The notes below the pieces were generated by a model. The model was not told the DNA's origin. It was given only the letters and a program-made list of their open reading frames with translations, and ran no database searches. The position numbers and the translations under genes are program-made. From a virus, in the IMG/VR virus record IMGVR_UViG_3300009082_000016, positions 64,001 to 128,000 of that record: DNA of 64,000 nt. One strand, given 5' to 3'. The stretch's first letter is position 1. Each line of letters opens with the position of its first letter. This document shows positions 8,072 to 53,708 of the stretch, in pieces.

Positions 8072-8444
8072 CCAGGACCGTTACCTCCGCCTGCTCGCAG
8101 GCCTTGATCCGCTGCAGCAGATCGTCCTTGCGGAGCTTGCGAATCTTAGCACGCATCTCCTCCGGGGAGGGAAGGTCCAGGATGTCGCAGAGGTCGGCGA
8201 AGCTCAGCAGCGTTCCACGCCAGATCTCGGCCGCCTCGCCGACGTCGAAGATCCAGCAATGTGCCAGCTCCGCCTGCTCCCGCAGCTGGCGGTCTTTCGA
8301 ATCGTGGTACAGGACGTAGTCGCGGATCTTGCGGTACATGAAGGCGGCGTAGGGGCGGTACGGCTCACGGCTCGAAACACTACCCCCCGCAGGTTGAAGC
8401 TCGTCAGGGAGCAACGACCACCGGGAATGTCCAACTGCTGACAC
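8043..8444 (-). CDS. Hypothetical protein
   Basis: Protein-like ORF filling the gap; start uncertain. Confidence 0.55.
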   Translation of the reverse strand: MSAVGHSRWSLLPDELQPAGGSVSSREPYRPYAAFMYRKIRDYVLYHDSKDRQLREQAELAHCWIFDVGEAAEIWRGTLLSFADLCDILDLPSPEEMRAKIRKLRKDDLLQRIKACEQAEVTVLDAGDDPSDD

Positions 8445-9303
8445 GGTCCGGCACCACCCTGAACGCCTTGTCCGTTCTCGTCACCACCACGTTCGCCGTC
8501 CCCGGCGTATTGCCGGTGAGGACCACCACCGAACCCGATCGCGACAGCGTGAGAATCGCCAGGTCGTCCGACTTGTAGTCGACGTAGATCCCGCCATCGG
8601 ACCAGTCGTTCCAGTCGCTCCCGATGACGTGCGGGGTCAGATTGAAGGGCACACCGACGTGGACGAGATACGGACCCGCCGGGTCGAACGTCACGTCCAC
8701 CGGAATCGGGTACACGAGGTCACCGAACAGCAGGCCCGCCCGCTCCGGGATCTTCACCCGCCGGCGCAGCTCCGCCCGGTCGGCCACCACGACCTCGTAC
8801 GTCCCGCCGCACATCGCGTCGAACAGGACCTTCCCATCGTCGTCCGACTGCGTTTCGATGATGCTCGCCACCAGCCCAGCGTAGTACACCCGCGGAGAGC
8901 CGTGGTATGGCACCAGCCGGATCATCGCGTTCGGGAGCGGCTTGCCGTCCTGCCCGTACAGGAAGCCCGACACCCGGCAGATCCCGGGCAGCGTGGAGTT
9001 CGCCACCTCGAAGATGTTCACGTCCATCAGGAAGTCGTTGTTGTCGGGAGCAGGCAGAGCGGGCTCGAAGACGGTGATCGAGAACGGGCTGGCGAACGAG
9101 CAGCCCGGCTTGTACGCCCTCACGTAGTAGACCACGCCGGCCGGCGACGCCGCGCCCGGCAGCAGCACGCTCACCTTCCCGAGAGCATCGGTGACGGCCT
9201 GCGTGATGAAGGTGTTGAGCGTATCGTAGAAGCGGACGGTGGCACCGACGACCGGGTCGTGCGCGATGGTCGTGTCCTTCAACGTGACGGAGACCAACTC
9301 CAT
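8404..9303 (-). CDS. Ig-like / carboxypeptidase-regulatory-like beta-sandwich virion protein
   Basis: PVVGATVRFY...VTDALGKV and VSGFLYGQDGKPLPNAMI...SDDDGKVLF repeats; C-terminal Big-2-like segment. Confidence 0.6.
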   Translation of the reverse strand: MELVSVTLKDTTIAHDPVVGATVRFYDTLNTFITQAVTDALGKVSVLLPGAASPAGVVYYVRAYKPGCSFASPFSITVFEPALPAPDNNDFLMDVNIFEVANSTLPGICRVSGFLYGQDGKPLPNAMIRLVPYHGSPRVYYAGLVASIIETQSDDDGKVLFDAMCGGTYEVVVADRAELRRRVKIPERAGLLFGDLVYPIPVDVTFDPAGPYLVHVGVPFNLTPHVIGSDWNDWSDGGIYVDYKSDDLAILTLSRSGSVVVLTGNTPGTANVVVTRTDKAFRVVPDRVSSWTFPVVVAP

Positions 9304-28228: not shown

Positions 28229-28572
28229 CCCTTCTTCTCCAGCTTGTCGATCTCCAGACTCACCACCTTCTCCGGCTCATCGAGCGACTTCTCCAGCTCT
28301 GCGCCAACCTCCTGCAAGTAGCCGGCCAGACGGCGCAGGCGGAGCAGACCGCGCCGCGCTTCGTAGAAGCTCCCACTGGCCGGCACCAGGTACCCGTCCC
28401 GGATGATGGAGATCACCGTGTCGAGATCGAACTCGAACGGGACTTCGCTGTAGCCGAGGTAGCCCTCCATCAGAGCGTACAGCTCGGGGCTGAGTGGGTC
28501 ACGCTCGCCCTGCGCGTTCGCCCGCCAGCTGACCAGCTTCTGAACGAACGCGAATGCCTGCTCACGGGTCAC
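28225..28572 (-). CDS. Hypothetical protein
   Basis: GTG overlapping the upstream stop. Confidence 0.55.
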   Translation of the reverse strand: MTREQAFAFVQKLVSWRANAQGERDPLSPELYALMEGYLGYSEVPFEFDLDTVISIIRDGYLVPASGSFYEARRGLLRLRRLAGYLQEVGAELEKSLDEPEKVVSLEIDKLEKKG

Positions 28573-28793
28573 AGGCCTTCCCCCTCGCGGAACTTCCACT
28601 GCTCGTCTTCGTAGTACCACTCCAGCCAGCGGCCGGAGTCCAGGAAGAAGATCGTCACCCGCTCGTCGTCGACCGGCTCTTTCAGCTTCCGCATGGTGCC
28701 GGCCTCGGTGATCGCAACATCGAAATCGATCACGTCCTTGGAGGCGTGCGGGGTATCCGAGAACGGGTGCCACCGGGTCACGTTGAAGTTCAT
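28569..28793 (-). CDS. Hypothetical protein
   Basis: 74 aa, tightly packed. Confidence 0.55.
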   Translation of the reverse strand: MNFNVTRWHPFSDTPHASKDVIDFDVAITEAGTMRKLKEPVDDERVTIFFLDSGRWLEWYYEDEQWKFREGEGL

Positions 28794-28797
28794 CGCC

Positions 28798-29163
28798 CTA
28801 CTCCCGAATCCACTGCCGGGCGATCTCGCAGAGGGCGATGAACACGGCGTCCTTGTCCCGCTCCAGCTCGCCGAGGTCGGCGTACGGCACGAGGTCCGGG
28901 TGGACCTTCTTCTCCCGGTCGTACTTCTCGCCGTACACCCAGCCCATTGCGAAGTACGACTGCATCCAGCTGCCGTGCAGCTCTTCGGGCGACTTCGACC
29001 GCTGCTCGCCGCACTGCCGCTCGATGACCTTGATGAACTGGTCCTTGAACGGCTGCTCCCGGTCCCGCCAAGCCGACGGGATGACGGGAGCGTGCGCTGC
29101 GATTGCCGCCAGCCGGGCCGCCTCGTAGACGAAGATCGCCCGCTCGACCATCACGTCGCCCAT
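28798..29163 (-). CDS. RyR-domain protein
   Basis: SPEELHGSWM...GWVYGEKYDREKKVHPDLVPYADL...RDKD. Confidence 0.85.
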   Translation of the reverse strand: MGDVMVERAIFVYEAARLAAIAAHAPVIPSAWRDREQPFKDQFIKVIERQCGEQRSKSPEELHGSWMQSYFAMGWVYGEKYDREKKVHPDLVPYADLGELERDKDAVFIALCEIARQWIRE

Positions 29164-30193: not shown

Positions 30194-31102
30194 CTACTTC
30201 CAGAGCTCCGGGACGATGATCTGCTGCATCGCCTTGTTGATCGCCTCGGCCACCTTCTGGTAACGGGACGTGTACGGCTTCTCCGCCTTCTTGGCCTTCC
30301 CCACGCCCCACCGACCGAAGCTCGTGTTGGCGAACAGCTTGGCCAGCCGTCTCAGGTGATCCAGATTCTCCAGCGGAATGAAGAAGCCACGGGCGGCGGT
30401 GTCCAGCAGCTGCTCAGCCTTCCGCGGACTGTTCTGCCACATCCCCCAGAACAAGGCCCTGGCCGCCGCCACCGAGGGGTTCACCATGTTCGTGTCGTCG
30501 TCCCAGCCGTCGGGGTACAGGTAGGTGCCGATGGTGGCTCCGCCCATCATCGGCCGCTTGAAGGTGATCTCCTTCCTGAGCTCCTCGCGGAAGAAGTCGA
30601 TCTGCACCTTCTGGGCGATGGGGTTCTCACCGAGCTTGGAGAAGAGCAGGGCGATGGCCTTCGCCTTCTCCCAGTTCTTGCCGACCTTGGGGCACTGACC
30701 GTTGGGCGGGGTGCAGACGTCGCGCAGGGAGAAGAAGTCGATGACCTTCTTGTTGTCCCCGAGGTAGAGAACCCCATTCGTGGAGTCGACATTCAGGCCG
30801 GTGAGCTCCTGGAGCGGGTGCCCCAGAAGGTCGAAGTAGGAACCCGCGGGCATCGCGTTCATCGTGGCGTAAAGCAGCTTGTGCAGCCGGCCGCTCGTGA
30901 ACGTCCACTGCAGCAGACCGTAGGTCACCGCCGTGCCGTCGTAGGCGACGAAGGTGTCGTAGTCGCCCCCCTCGGGCTTGGCGATGGCTGCCACGATGAT
31001 GTCGAACCCGGTCGGGTTGGCCGGCAGAACGTACGGGACCGTGCCCTTGATGTACGGGCCCGACCAGCTGCCGAACTTCGCCCACTTCACGATGCTGCCC
31101 AT
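30194..31102 (-). CDS. Lysozyme-fold peptidoglycan hydrolase (endolysin or virion lysin candidate)
   Basis: EGGDYDTFVAYDGTAVTYGLLQW motif (catalytic E...D...G-x-x-Q). Confidence 0.65.
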   Translation of the reverse strand: MGSIVKWAKFGSWSGPYIKGTVPYVLPANPTGFDIIVAAIAKPEGGDYDTFVAYDGTAVTYGLLQWTFTSGRLHKLLYATMNAMPAGSYFDLLGHPLQELTGLNVDSTNGVLYLGDNKKVIDFFSLRDVCTPPNGQCPKVGKNWEKAKAIALLFSKLGENPIAQKVQIDFFREELRKEITFKRPMMGGATIGTYLYPDGWDDDTNMVNPSVAAARALFWGMWQNSPRKAEQLLDTAARGFFIPLENLDHLRRLAKLFANTSFGRWGVGKAKKAEKPYTSRYQKVAEAINKAMQQIIVPELWK

Positions 31103-31150: not shown

Positions 31151-31771
31151 TCAGTTCCCCTTGTTCCAGCCGGAGGCGGTCGAGCCGGAGCGCATGCTCC
31201 GCACCGCGCAGGACGAACTGGCGATGCCCTTCGAGAGGCTGACACCGTCATGGGCGAAGCTCAACACCTGCGCGTTCGGATCGATCGCGAGGTTCTGGAG
31301 CGTCATCTGCGCCTCCATGCCGGCGGCGAGGTAGAGGAACTTCCAGGAGTAGACCTGCTCCTGGTTGGCGATCATCCCCTTCAGCTGATCGAGCTGGTAC
31401 TCCCTCGACGCGTTCTCGAAGCCGTCGGTGAGGATGACGAGGATGACCTGCTCCGGCCGCTCGGGCTCGGGCATAGCGGCGAGCTTCACGCCCAGCTCGG
31501 TGATCGTCTTGCCGACGGCGTCGTACAGCGCCGTGGTCCCCCGCGGGAGGTACGTCTTGTCGTCGAGGGGCTTCACGTCCTTGACCGGGACGTCGCGGAA
31601 GATGACCTGGTACTCGTGGTCGAACTGGACGAGCGTCATCGCCGCCTCGCCCGGCGCCTTCTTCTGGTCGTCGACGAACGCGTTGAAGCCCCCGATGGCC
31701 TCCTTGACCATGGCCTCCATCGAGCCGGAGCGATCGAGCACGAACACGATGTGGCACGAGTTCTTCTTCAC
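31151..31771 (-). CDS. von Willebrand factor A domain protein
   Basis: VFVLDRSGSM MIDAS, RGTTALYDA, ILTDGFENAS. Confidence 0.92.
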   Translation of the reverse strand: MKKNSCHIVFVLDRSGSMEAMVKEAIGGFNAFVDDQKKAPGEAAMTLVQFDHEYQVIFRDVPVKDVKPLDDKTYLPRGTTALYDAVGKTITELGVKLAAMPEPERPEQVILVILTDGFENASREYQLDQLKGMIANQEQVYSWKFLYLAAGMEAQMTLQNLAIDPNAQVLSFAHDGVSLSKGIASSSCAVRSMRSGSTASGWNKGN

Positions 31772-50082: not shown

Positions 50083-50705
50083 CCCGAAAACCTCCTCTTG
50101 GTCTGCTCCACCCGCGGATACCATGGCTCTACCACTTCTTCCGGGGATCGGCCTTGAGGCCCGTCATCCCGAAGATTCCGTGGGCCTGCACCGTTTGCGG
50201 ACACCAGCGGGTACTGCCCGGTGCCCCAATCGAATCGATCTGCTGGGTGTGGAGCACCCAATGCTGTTCCAGACGCTCGGCGGACACCGTAGTTCTGCAT
50301 CGCACACAGCAACACGGCCGCATCAAGGTAACCGGCGTCAACAGCTGATGCAACCCGGCGTTGTAGAACTCCTGACTGGAGTGCCGAAGTTCCTTGTCGA
50401 TCCCGTCCGACAGGCCCTTTCTTGCCGCCGCCAACGACGCCTCCCCGTCGTCTCTCCCCCCCGTGCGAGCTCCGGAAGTCAGCCCACTTCTTCTTGCCGC
50501 CCAGACGGACAGCAGCTGCAGTCTTCCTACCGCTCGACGCGCAACGACGGCATAGCGACCAGCCCTGCTAAACCTGGTCGCCTCGCGACAGCACCACTCC
50601 ACGGCCGACACGGACCCGTAAACCGTTTCCACCATCGTGTCCGCCGACAGCTGCTGGGTCACCTGCACCAGTCCGTCCTCCCTGGCTTCCTCCGGAGTCA
50701 TGCTC

Positions 50706-51068
50706 TCACCAGGGCTTCCCGGAGCGGCACACCTTCCTTCTATCCCACGGGCGCATGCCGGGCAAGAACTCGGCCCAGGCCACCCGCGGCGGCGCCACGT
50801 GCTTCATGTCGAATGGCGCCTTGCCGATGCGCCGGTCGACCTGCCGCAGGATGCGGGCGATCGTCTCGCGGCTGACGCCCACCATCCGCGCCACCCGACT
50901 CGCCGTCAAGCCGAACATGTAGACGGTGCGGAACACGAACTGCTCCCGCGGCGGCATCGAACAGAGCGCGGCGCAGAGCCCCACCTGGAACTCGAGGGGC
51001 ATGTTCTGGACCCACGGGGCGAGGGAACCACGCCGGCCGCGCTGCTTGGCGCCAAACATGTTCGTCAT
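50706..51068 (-). CDS. Sigma-70 region 4-like HTH protein
   Basis: ALCSMPPREQFVF...GLTASRVARMVGVSRETI. Confidence 0.7.
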   Translation of the reverse strand: MTNMFGAKQRGRRGSLAPWVQNMPLEFQVGLCAALCSMPPREQFVFRTVYMFGLTASRVARMVGVSRETIARILRQVDRRIGKAPFDMKHVAPPRVAWAEFLPGMRPWDRRKVCRSGKPW

Positions 51069-51430
51069 CCTCCACCTGCCAGCTTCTTCCCCTCTTCGCA
51101 GTCGCAGAGGATGTCGTTGGAGATGTGCCCCGTGTCGAGGCACTTCTCGCACTCCATGATCAGGAACTCCTTCCGGCCCCTCACGTCGGCGAGGTAGTCG
51201 GTGACCGCGTCCAGGAAGTTGGTCAGCCCCTCCATGCAGTCGTCATCGTCCTTGCTGAACTGGATCAGCTCCGGCCCCGGCGTCCCGTACTCCACGCCCC
51301 GGGCCATCTGGGCGCGGCGGAACCGGCCCGATAGCTCCAGCAGGCAGAGCCGCTGCTTCTTCCAGAGCTCAGGGTCGAGCTTCTTGAGAATGTCCTCGAT
51401 GGTCGCGAATCCAAGATCTCCACAAGCCAT
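51065..51430 (-). CDS. Hypothetical protein with C-terminal CxxC/CxC
   Basis: AAAGGAG SD; first gene after the RNA array. Confidence 0.65.
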   Translation of the reverse strand: MACGDLGFATIEDILKKLDPELWKKQRLCLLELSGRFRRAQMARGVEYGTPGPELIQFSKDDDDCMEGLTNFLDAVTDYLADVRGRKEFLIMECEKCLDTGHISNDILCDCEEGKKLAGGG

Positions 51431-51448
51431 GTGCTTCTCCTTTCCTAT

Positions 51449-51892
51449 GGTGGCTTCCAGCAGGGACCGGCCGAAGCCGATCCCTGCGACCTGGTGGCGT
51501 CAGTCAGAGGCTAGTCCGATTCCTGTCGCAGCTAGCCGTAACGATCCAGGGCATGCCGGAGTCCCACGTCAGCGGGCCCCTGCTGGAAACCACCTTCTGG
51601 ATCACAGGAGGGACCGGCCGAAGCCGATCCCGCATCCGAGACGCTAACCTTGCTAGCACGGCCACGCCTAAACGTGACTAGTGGAGCCCGTACCAGCCTT
51701 GCCGGAGTCCCACGTCAGCGGGCCCCTCCTGTGATCCAGAACGTCCCCTCCCCGAGGGACCGGCCGAGGTCTAAACCACGGTCGGTCCCGCGGGCTTGCC
51801 GGAACTAGGCGGGCCACACCTGCCCTTGCCTTGTTGAGGCCTTCCCCGAGATGCCGGAGTCCCGCATCAGCGGGCCCCTCGGGGAGGGGACG
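51449..51892 (-). ncRNA. Tandem array of three structured RNA cassettes (candidate guide RNAs, 5-nt-periodic variable cores)
   Basis: Units 51449-51594, 51595-51741, 51742-51892. Each has a unit-specific 17-18 bp closing stem, a shared 5' scaffold GGGGCCCGCTGAYGYGGGACTCCGGCA and a shared 3' hairpin ending GGCCGGTCCC (UUCG loop in two units). Confidence 0.85.
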
Positions 51893-51897
51893 TCGAT

Positions 51898-52530
51898 CTA
51901 CGCGGCCTCTTCCAGGATCCTGTTGAGCCGGTTCCGGATCCGCGTGAGCGCGGTGCGAAGCACGGGCAGCACCGTTCCCAGGAGCTCGGCCGCCCTGCGG
52001 TTGTTCTCGTACTTGTTGAGCAGGCCCTCGATGTCGTCGATGATCTCCCGGAGAAGGAGGGTGCCGGTGTTCCGCCTGCGGAGCCGTTCCACCGTGTGCT
52101 GGTAGGACTTCTTGCTCGTGGCCGAGGTCCGAACCGACACATTGCCGGTGACGACAATCTGGACCTTCTTGATCTTCACGACCCAGGCATAGCCCCGGGC
52201 CATGAGCCGCGCTTCCTGCTTCCACTGCTTCTCGGCCGCCTCGCTCCGGTTGGCCGTGAAGCCGACGGAGAGGTTCTCCTTCACCCACGCGGGGACGGGC
52301 TCACCATCGAATCGGCCGTCGCGCCAGGCCGCCACGATGTGGTCGGTCTCGACGGATCCGTTCGCCTGGGTGTTCAACCAGTCGATCGCCCTTCCGTAGA
52401 GCATAGCCTGCGCGTCGGTGTACACCGGCGTCCGTGACTGGTAACCGACGAGCGTCGCCCCTTCCGGCAGCTGGCCCGGCTGAACGACGTCCTCCTCGTA
52501 GCTGATGATCTCCTTCTTCTCCTGGGCCAT
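51898..52530 (-). CDS. Partner protein of the Cas7-like gene (210 aa)
   Basis: Start overlaps the Cas7-like stop (TGATG); stop is 5 nt before the array; HIVAAWRD...EAAEKQWKQEARLMAR helical motif. Confidence 0.65.
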   Translation of the reverse strand: MAQEKKEIISYEEDVVQPGQLPEGATLVGYQSRTPVYTDAQAMLYGRAIDWLNTQANGSVETDHIVAAWRDGRFDGEPVPAWVKENLSVGFTANRSEAAEKQWKQEARLMARGYAWVVKIKKVQIVVTGNVSVRTSATSKKSYQHTVERLRRRNTGTLLLREIIDDIEGLLNKYENNRRAAELLGTVLPVLRTALTRIRNRLNRILEEAA

Positions 52531-53198
52531 CAGCCTTCCTTCACCAGGCGCTTCGCTCCGGCGATCGTGAAAACGCCGTTGGCCTCGTGGCATCCCCGTC
52601 CCGGGCGCCCCTGACCCAACCCGATGAACTGGCCGGCATGCTGCACGATGCTCGCCAGGAGATCGAGGCTGACGACGTCCGGCTTGTGGATGACCGTCAC
52701 CCTCGTGTACCACGGCGGATTGAAGTGTGGACGGTACACGGTGGCGGGGAAGTGGGTGCGCGTCTCCTCCTTCTTGTCCTTGTTCCCACGGAACACGATG
52801 TCCTTGCTGCACATCTCGATGTCCTCACAGATGATCGGGTACACCCCACTCGGCACGCGAAACAGCCGGATGTTCTCGGCCGGAAGGTGGAGGATCTCCG
52901 TCGCCGCCTGGACGAAGCATCCATGGAACGCACCCGAAGGGATCCCGAACGGGTGCTTCTTGTCCCCCGTCAGATGCAGGCAGCCCTTCGCCTCATCCTT
53001 CGGGTCCAGCTTGGCCGGCTTGGGAGGGTAGGGCTCTCCCTTGCCGCGCTCGCTCATCGCACGCATGAAATCGGCCAGGGCTGCCCGCGGCTTCCCCGGA
53101 ATGAAAGGGGCCTCTCCCACGAGATCGAAGGCGGTATACCAGAGCTCGAGGGGCTTCAACTTGATCTCCACCTCTTCGGCCTGCATCTTCTTCGTCAT
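52530..53198 (-). CDS. Stand-alone Cas7/RAMP-like RNA-binding protein (222 aa)
   Basis: FDLVGEAPF (RAMP beta1), FGIPSGAFHGCFVQAA (IPxxxxKG-like helix), YRPHFNPPW, and C-terminal Gly-rich loop AGQFIGLGQGRPG...NGVF. Confidence 0.7.
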   Translation of the reverse strand: MTKKMQAEEVEIKLKPLELWYTAFDLVGEAPFIPGKPRAALADFMRAMSERGKGEPYPPKPAKLDPKDEAKGCLHLTGDKKHPFGIPSGAFHGCFVQAATEILHLPAENIRLFRVPSGVYPIICEDIEMCSKDIVFRGNKDKKEETRTHFPATVYRPHFNPPWYTRVTVIHKPDVVSLDLLASIVQHAGQFIGLGQGRPGRGCHEANGVFTIAGAKRLVKEG

Positions 53199-53206
53199 GT
53201 CCTCTC

Positions 53207-53491
53207 CTAGTCTTCGAGGTTGGCGATCCAGACGAGGCCATCCTCGAAGTGCTGCTCCCTCGCGATGCGGCAGATCTCCTGCCACACATCCTCGGGAATG
53301 CTGTCACGGTCCGACCCCTCTTCGTGGTCGAACGTAATGAACACGTCGCTGTACTCGCCTGGGACTTCGCCCTTCCGGTGCCACGTCGCGATCGGCTTGC
53401 CGGAGTTGAGCCAGTCCATGAAGTCCTTGCGCTGGTACCACTCGGAGGCGTCGATGCGGAGCACCCGCCCGACATACTTGAACACGGCCAT
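53207..53491 (-). CDS. Hypothetical protein
   Basis: MAVFKY start. Confidence 0.55.
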   Translation of the reverse strand: MAVFKYVGRVLRIDASEWYQRKDFMDWLNSGKPIATWHRKGEVPGEYSDVFITFDHEEGSDRDSIPEDVWQEICRIAREQHFEDGLVWIANLED

Positions 53492-53708
53492 CAGCGATCC
53501 TTCCCGTAGTACTCGAGGCACTCCTTGCACCGCAGGAACCCGGCATCGTCATCCTCCGGGTCGCCCTCGAGCACCGCGCCTCCCTGATCGATCTGGAAGG
53601 CACCGCAGACCGTGTCCTGGTCGTTGGACCCCTCGAACTCGCAGTCCTTGCCGCCGGCGCCGCAGTGCTTCCCCTCGAACCGGATGGTCCGCTTGGTCTC
53701 AATCTCCA

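Follow-up and report, generated by a model that had tools for sequence, protein, structure and literature searches.

The locus described here lies in a viral genome of 172,723 bp (172.7 kb) with direct terminal repeats, of which bases 64001-128000 were analysed as one stretch of 64 kb (the window); the G+C content is 66%. Three head-to-tail units of about 147 nt each are located on the minus strand at 51893-51449, between two minus-strand genes (Table 1). They are preceded by the vipr-like gene P0001 and the partner gene P0002, the ATG of which overlaps the vipr stop codon (ATGA), suggesting translational coupling. The start codon of the downstream gene P0003 is located 19 nt past unit 3, so the array is placed inside an operon. 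P0003 is followed by a gene coding for a protein with sigma-70 region 4 (Pfam E 6e-7), and the array looks to be enclosed in an early or regulatory operon. No promoter-like or terminator-like sites were found in 50900-53600.

Table 1. Coordinates of the array locus, of the elements of its three units and of features found at the loci of distant homologues.
Feature	Sequence	Positions	Strand	Description	Basis
vipr-like gene P0001	window	52533-53198	-	222 aa; minimal single-RRM RAMP	
Partner gene P0002	window	51901-52530	-	210 aa; vap position	translation
vrRNA-like unit 1	window	51741-51893	-		fold, pentamer readout
Unit 1, P1 5' arm	window	51893-51879	-		
Unit 1, P2	window	51878-51856	-		
Unit 1, core	window	51855-51791	-		
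Unit 1, P3	window	51790-51756	-	extended	
Unit 1, P1 3' arm	window	51755-51741	-		
vrRNA-like unit 2	window	51596-51740	-		fold, pentamer readout
Unit 2, P1 5' arm	window	51740-51727	-		
Unit 2, P2	window	51726-51704	-		
Unit 2, core	window	51703-51632	-		
Unit 2, P3	window	51631-51610	-	UUCG loop	
Unit 2, P1 3' arm	window	51609-51596	-		
vrRNA-like unit 3	window	51449-51594	-		fold, pentamer readout
Unit 3, P1 5' arm	window	51594-51581	-		
Unit 3, P2	window	51580-51558	-		
Unit 3, core	window	51557-51485	-		
Unit 3, P3	window	51484-51463	-		
Unit 3, P1 3' arm	window	51462-51449	-		
Downstream gene P0003	window	51068-51430	-	121 aa; Cys-rich C-terminus (CEKC...CDC), no family	gene calls on identical contig L018
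Gene after P0003	window	50709-51071	-	121 aa; sigma-70 region 4	Pfam
Cy-LDV1 tract	L006	4618-4815		BK059895.1 about 31266-31463	
Cy-LDV1 tract	L006	5420-5575		BK059895.1 about 30506-30661	
PLHxxFxWDD partner gene	L010	2830-3348			
PLHxxFxWDD partner gene	L012	3711-4304			
PLHxxFxWDD partner gene	L006	4828-5409			
PLHxxFxWDD partner gene	L007	3972-4646			

The other contigs that include P0001 have 100% identity across the locus. Close relatives of the array or of P0001 were found neither by scaffold pattern in viral contigs, nor by peptide patterns, blastn against phages or a word-indexed protein search. There are no CRISPR-type direct-repeat arrays and no cas genes near the locus, PADLOC gives no match, and TRF calls no tandem repeats in the array. 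A 675-aa ORF of the genome has no match among phages or in Pfam.

Every unit is composed of five elements: the 5' arm of the closing stem P1, P2, the core starting from GGC, P3 and the 3' arm of P1. P2 is a 23-nt 5' hairpin, identical in units 2 and 3 and different in unit 1 by a loop base and the replacement of a G-U pair with G-C. P3 is a 22-nt hairpin with a UUCG loop, also identical in units 2 and 3, while unit 1 has an extended 35-nt hairpin with the same ending, GGCCGGUCCC. The cores enclosed by these hairpins are 65-73 nt long. The predicted RNA folds have energies of -92.8 kcal/mol (z -4.7) for unit 1, -87.9 kcal/mol (z -7.1) for unit 2 and -82.8 kcal/mol (z -5.8) for unit 3.

The arms of P1 (about 14-19 bp) are unique to each unit and covary: 12 of the 15 aligned pairs are changed on both sides and pairing is kept at 100%, compared with 38-56% in slid controls. 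G-U pairs occur in P1 only when the minus strand is read, as the plus strand would have C-A in their place, and therefore the functional form is the minus-strand RNA. Rfam gave no family at E up to 10 across 50500-52900, and ARAGORN found no tRNA or tmRNA. The CUGAYG stretch in P2 (CUGA(Y)G(Y)) can be read as a part of a hammerhead, but this reading was rejected since A9 and the GAAA core are missing and there is no Rfam match.

According to the initial annotation, the cores carry a hidden five-base period of degenerate GGY-NN pentamers. With the scaffold GGC at 51855, 51703 and 51557 taken as the starting points on the minus strand, we reproduced the pentamer strings and their counts exactly: 11/13 pentamers begin with G in unit 1, 10/14 in unit 2 and 9/14 in unit 3 (30/41 in total), and strict GGY accounts for 12 of the 41 (29%). 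The observed rhythm is real: dinucleotide-preserving shuffling, done 5000 times with the scaffold GGC kept fixed, gave 15.4 G-led pentamers on average (sd 2.6) and never as many as 30; p = 0.0002 once all phases and periods 3-8 are taken into account. Autocorrelation has the same period, G-G pairs being enriched over expectation about 1.5-fold at lags 5, 10 and 15 and reduced to 0.45-0.66 of it at lags 2-3, 7-8 and 12-13. No phase bias is seen in the cores at periods 2-4 and 6-9.

The pentamer positions differ strongly in composition. G is found at positions 1-5 in 30, 22, 4, 4 and 10 of the 41 pentamers, respectively, and position 3 is occupied by C in 22 and by T in 7; G1 is conserved at 73%, and positions 4-5 are near-random. 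Unit 3 had been described as losing phase after nine pentamers, which is correct (the nine are all G-led), and unit 2 likewise drops phase, after 12. The in-phase pentamers, 13 in unit 1, 12 in unit 2 and nine in unit 3, have G1 at 88%, G2 at 50% and Y3 at 79%, corresponding to a G-N-Y motif. G is also rarer at the first displayed position, N4, than in strict tracts (4/41 versus 56/173, p 0.003), and position 3 is depleted in G to the same extent (4/41). We speculate that G avoidance at positions 3-4 helps to keep the register when the triplet is weak.

Within the window, 10 or more phased G per 13 pentamers are reached in only 0.18% of 65-nt minus-strand segments, and no period-5 peak of the minus-strand track is higher than those of the three cores. 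Across all 172.7 kb of the genome, their ranks are 1st, 3rd and 5th, and single chance peaks of similar height are present. A lone peak would therefore be unremarkable; what is remarkable is that three such peaks lie side by side in a common phase, which the scaffold sets in all three units. The cores of units 1 and 2 are 53% identical in register and about 25% identical at other shifts, indicating that they are paralogues, and the three units therefore cannot be counted as independent. Outside the array, the period-5 "G" track peaks highest at 8438-8500 (plus strand), which is a G-poor stretch and not a pentamer array; a few phased G in such a stretch inflate the normalised power, so this statistic has to be read together with the G count.

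The P0001 product was modelled by AF2 with pLDDT 91.8, using an alignment of its homologues as input. The model includes a thumb in the form of a long beta-hairpin (residues about 127-159) and a G-loop (about 193-203) with GLGQGRP at 193-199. The top matches found by Foldseek and VIA-align are Csm3, Cmr4/6, type VII Cas7 and gRAMP domains (Z about 10-12.8), and the top 26 structural matches are all RAMPs. The only family matched by the P0001 sequence is phrog_4652, of unknown function, with no Pfam or PADLOC family found; an exhaustive HMMER search has added 54 distant relatives with 21-35% identity. In class 1 CRISPR systems, the Cas7 backbone has one protomer per RNA repeat length and displaces bases periodically. 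P0001 has the RRM, G-loop and thumb fold in common with this backbone (Csm3, Cmr4 or Cas7 on crRNA). It differs in that the period is 5 nt rather than 6, the repeat is marked by sequence, there is a single RRM and the gene is phage-borne. Compared with CRISPR-Cas type III, the locus has neither CRISPR repeats nor a cas operon.

A closer counterpart is VIPR (Viral Interference Programmable Repeat), a CRISPR-like phage silencing system described in 2026 (bioRxiv 10.64898/2026.04.26.720920 and.720927). According to the text of these preprints, it consists of Vipr, which is a minimal RAMP, a vap partner gene and vrRNAs in which 9-16 YNNGG repeats precede an invariant 3' tail; the NN dinucleotides are read against dsDNA with one skipped base, and the targets are competing phages and satellites (2026.04.26.720920,.720927). 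Natural VIPR systems are described there as having no self-target (bioRxiv preprints). In the text of the SUSP1 structure preprint, one protomer is bound per repeat, G1 is contacted by H17 and D177, G2 by R138 and W178, and Y3 is held by a pocket including R179, with the D177A variant being inactive. The same body of text gives 5-6 subunits per turn and a pitch of 66-72 Å for SUSP1 filaments (structure preprints) and states that perturbation of GGY abolishes silencing in SUSP1 (VIPR preprints).

The profile built from P0001 and 53 homologues matches SUSP1 Vipr with E 2e-18 in a genome search and 3e-21 in hmmsearch. The match is located at 28498-29064 of phage SUSP1, in the ORF ALH47069.1, and direct blastp of P0001 against this protein gives 27% identity over 48 aa (E 7e-5). 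ALH47069.1 has H17, K33, E71, M72, R138, C173, D177, W178 and R179 at the numbering of the structure preprint, and the four published vrRNAs sit in its flanks. The profile match, the residue numbering and the vrRNA flanks together indicate that P0001 is a Vipr homologue and, therefore, that the array is a vrRNA array.

The type II VIPR of SUSP1 (ALH47069.1, vap1 and four vrRNAs; 2026.04.26.720920,.720927 and 2026.10.15.759431) has the same vipr-partner-array gene order on the same strand. Both proteins are minimal RAMPs of about 200 aa, and both arrays have a 5-nt repeat (9-13 in phase here, 9-16 published) with a structured invariant 3' element after it. This element is a hairpin here and a pseudoknot in SUSP1. 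Unlike in SUSP1, our units also include a conserved hairpin on the 5' side and are each closed by a stem of 14-19 bp specific to the unit, and P0002 is unrelated to the SUSP1 partner. The motif differs as well: G1, G2 and Y3 are conserved at 82, 98 and 100% in SUSP1 and at 88, 50 and 79% here, so it is G2 rather than G1 that is loose in our array. The degenerate pentamers of SUSP1 (L017, KT454805.2 27500-29510) lose G1 (TGT, AGT), with G2 present in 49/50 and Y3 in 50/50. As SUSP1 loosens G1 and this array G2, the two have opposite relaxation patterns.

The G-loops of the two proteins, DWR in SUSP1 and QGR in P0001, are also different. P0001 keeps R156 (equivalent to R138), R198 (R179) and R51 (about K33), but has Q196 for D177, G197 for W178 and G35 for H17, the N-terminal part of the alignment being uncertain. 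The family G-loop consensus is G[IV]G[ED]WRP, compared with GLGQGRP in P0001, and Q at the acidic position is unique to P0001 among the 54 family members. W is absent from the G-loop in 26 of the 54 members, some of which have strict tracts, so W178 is not a family-wide requirement. Loss of W178 as the cause of the loose G2 was therefore rejected, since W-less family members still have strict GGY. There is a mismatch between the protein and its array: the residues that contact G1 in SUSP1 are altered in P0001, although G1 is the best kept base of the array.

Departures from GGY have been described before. The preprint texts list the non-canonical repeats NNNGG, YNNNG and NNNNG (methods of bioRxiv 2026.04.26.720920) and GAC/NN, CAC/NN, WGT/NN and TGH/NN (bioRxiv 10.64898/2026.10.21.760802); like our array, these are, as described there, pentamer arrays adjoining Vipr-like folds in which the fixed triplet departs from GGY. 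Our array is compatible with such related-consensus classes, but it is looser than any of the motifs named there. A G-N-Y motif with a free middle base is absent from the motifs named in the preprint text, although the figures and tables may already list it. The array architectures described in the text of the VIPR preprint are tandem type II, staggered/overlapping, hammerhead-interspersed and single vrRNA, and here too tandem guides need to be separated from one transcript. In contrast to the hammerhead-interspersed arrays, there is no hammerhead in our array, and its units are bounded by long unit-specific stems. The words "stem" and "RNase" have no occurrences in the text of the VIPR preprint.

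Contigs encoding distant homologues with about 24-33% identity (L005, L006, L007, L010 and L012-14, where L006 is Cyanophage Cy-LDV1, BK059895) were scanned for period-5 G power. In all of them, the strongest peaks are located in same-strand intergenic DNA adjoining the homologue gene. These tracts are strict GGY-NN, extend up to about 250 nt and represent five independent loci; those of L005, L006 and L010 are long uninterrupted runs without closing stems. Given the Cas7 fold and these homologue-linked GGY-NN tracts, we dropped TRAP-like ring wrapping, a G-quadruplex, a decayed microsatellite and a Y-RNA as candidates for our array.

Cyanophage Cy-LDV1 contains an unannotated VIPR, in which the hypothetical protein Cy-LDV1_g34 is the Vipr homologue (tblastn E 1e-4). 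Its two strict GGC-NN tracts are located in the gaps flanking g33, near cI, an excisionase and a Bet/Exo module. In L010, a 65-aa gene has been called (2004-2201) wholly within a GGC-NN pentamer tract; this call is almost certainly spurious, so pentamer tracts can be mis-annotated as ORFs.

P0002 does not belong to any Pfam, PHROG or PADLOC family and has no homologue among 5.8 billion proteins. It has a helical C-terminus, and its single-sequence AF2 model (pLDDT 47) is unusable. In four unrelated contigs, the Vipr homologue is followed by a member of another partner family with the motif PLHxxFxWDD..AA..YRLxQAR. This family probably corresponds to a published vap family, and P0002 has no relationship with it (hhalign probability 0.2%).

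The initial annotation had proposed that the displayed dinucleotides form a gapped target code. Target scans were made with exact IUPAC gapped patterns of 9-10 consecutive dinucleotides with a 1-nt skip, mismatches being disallowed. No matches were found in viral contigs (five patterns) or metagenome contigs (two patterns), and seven exact matches of an 18-base sub-pattern in a genome collection all fail when extended (0-3 of 8). Within the genome of the phage itself, the best NN match with skips of 0-2 is 67-78%, the same as in shuffled-order controls, and there is no self-target of at least 80%, which agrees with the lack of self-targets in the published systems. As matching was exact only and natural matches are usually 80-100%, these scans neither support nor weaken the gapped code. 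Units 1 and 2 have 7 of 12 bases in common at each NN position and therefore would address related sites.

Natural variation was found in one soil-metagenome run (X2), where the reference form coexists with a second allele of unit 1. All six differences of this allele are within 51770-51839; the remaining 770 nt of the contig have none, and no change is seen in units 2 and 3 or in the flanking genes. The clustering is significant (6/8 differences in 153/2301 nt, P = 2e-6). Core changes affect pentamer positions 2, 4, 5 and 2, leaving G1 and Y3 intact, and the apical stem of P3 has a compensatory double change from U-A to C-G. The numbers are small and the differences may constitute one recombination tract; still, such a pattern would be expected if the guide diversifies and its scaffold is constrained.

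Overall, we consider this to be, quite probably, a VIPR locus of an environmental phage, composed of the Vipr P0001, an orphan partner P0002 in the vap position and three minus-strand vrRNAs. The earlier proposal that each protomer takes one pentamer, grips a G-led triplet and displays the last two bases corresponds in its outline to the published VIPR mechanism, and the Cas7 fold, the SUSP1 profile link and the five GGY-NN loci speak for it. The triplet part has to be modified: conservation applies to G1 and Y3 and not to a whole triplet, and the residues reading G1 and G2 in SUSP1 are changed. P0001 may nevertheless grip a G-led triplet, and its binding of the array RNAs, reading with a 1-nt skip and role in silencing are predicted by analogy with SUSP1.

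By homology with the SUSP1 complex, each phased tract of 45-65 nt would be covered by a Vipr polymer with one protomer for every pentamer. Each protomer would hold bases 1-3 (in this array, in effect, G1 and Y3) and present bases 4-5. The presented dinucleotides would read dsDNA with one skipped base between them, and the outcome would be silencing of a competing mobile element. The unit-specific closing stems could be processing or insulation elements: a double-strand-specific RNase, e.g., RNase III, may cut each guide from the operon transcript at the stem, and the stems may also keep neighbouring units from mispairing. An intact closing stem would join both ends of a filament of about 13 protomers. 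With 5-6 subunits per turn and the 66-72 Å pitch, such a filament would part its ends by well over 100 Å, so the stem is presumably removed or opened. If left intact, the GC-rich closing stem is hard to reconcile with an extended helical filament.

More tentatively, the locus may represent a distinct VIPR subtype, which we regard as a possibility still on the doubtful side. In such a subtype only G1 and Y3 would be fixed, the G-loop would be of the Q-G-R type, the free position 2 would perhaps take part in specificity, G would be excluded at positions 3-4 to maintain the register and guides would be released from stem cassettes by a double-strand RNase of the host, a route that has not been described for VIPR. 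The initial annotation left a choice between a divergent subtype and a decaying array, and the conserved scaffold, the covarying stems, the G avoidance at positions 3-4 and the compensatory allele favour the former. Decay would mean that a canonical GGY-NN VIPR has drifted, so that the RNAs may fold but no longer load Vipr or guide it. It could account for the low share of strict GGY (29%), for the loss of phase after 12 pentamers in unit 2 and nine in unit 3 and for a G-loop that lacks the acidic and aromatic consensus residues, Q196 being unique among the 54. It is unlikely, as the vipr ORF is intact and has a confident fold, the P2 hairpin is conserved across units, the closing stems are fully compensated and the natural allele preserves pairing via a double change. 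Besides, drift at 66% GC should add G at positions 3-5, yet only 4/41 are found at each of positions 3 and 4, at N4 significantly below strict arrays, and non-canonical or degenerate pentamer motifs are reported in the preprint text for working VIPR clades.

The RNAs might also bind Vipr in another role, as decoys or redirectors of a rival VIPR or as regulators of the downstream genes. "Solo" vrRNAs of satellites and phages are reported to redirect a foreign VIPR, the array is directly upstream of P0003 and the sigma-70 region 4 protein in one operon, and its motif is poorly suited to the contacts of the phage's own Vipr. We find this improbable because the array occupies the canonical place straight after vipr and the partner gene, as in SUSP1, and there is no sign of a second Vipr in the genome, where phrog_4652 matches once. 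That the period is a by-product of G+C richness, base pairing or an old pentanucleotide microsatellite is hardly credible. Single 60-nt segments of similar period-5 power do occur elsewhere in the 172.7-kb genome, and the common ancestry of units 1 and 2 makes the samples dependent. Chance would nevertheless have to produce a count reached by no shuffle, one scaffold-set phase in all three units, information as unequal as 73% at G1 against near-random positions 4-5, and the same rhythm beside distant homologues of P0001 in unrelated contigs.

Systems of this kind have been known since April 2026, and, as far as the preprint text goes, what is new here is that the motif is relaxed to G-N-Y, that the G-loop is altered and that the cassettes are closed by stems. 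The class is only months old, and its rules come so far almost wholly from one clade (SUSP1, P. fulva). A natural register with only G1 and Y3 fixed, together with the altered residues at the G1/G2 contacts and the stem-closed cassettes, shows how much of the GGY grip is needed. The system also shows how the register can be set and suggests a third route to guide excision, ribozymes and staggered arrays being the other two. In annotation, loci of this type would escape searches for strict YNNGG but are found by testing for phase next to a Vipr-like gene.

The locus is present in freshwater-sediment, soil and wetland metagenomes of several studies. Two wetland metatranscriptome assemblies contain pieces of vipr and the partner gene and not the array; DNA contigs break at the repeats too, so this gap carries no weight. 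For the same reason, the ends of the RNA contigs X10 and X11 at 51882 and 51884, close to where unit 1 begins, were discounted as a processing site. A G>T substitution at 51930, near the 3' end of the partner gene, is common to two wetland RNA-library assemblies and a soil DNA run and is a common strain variant.
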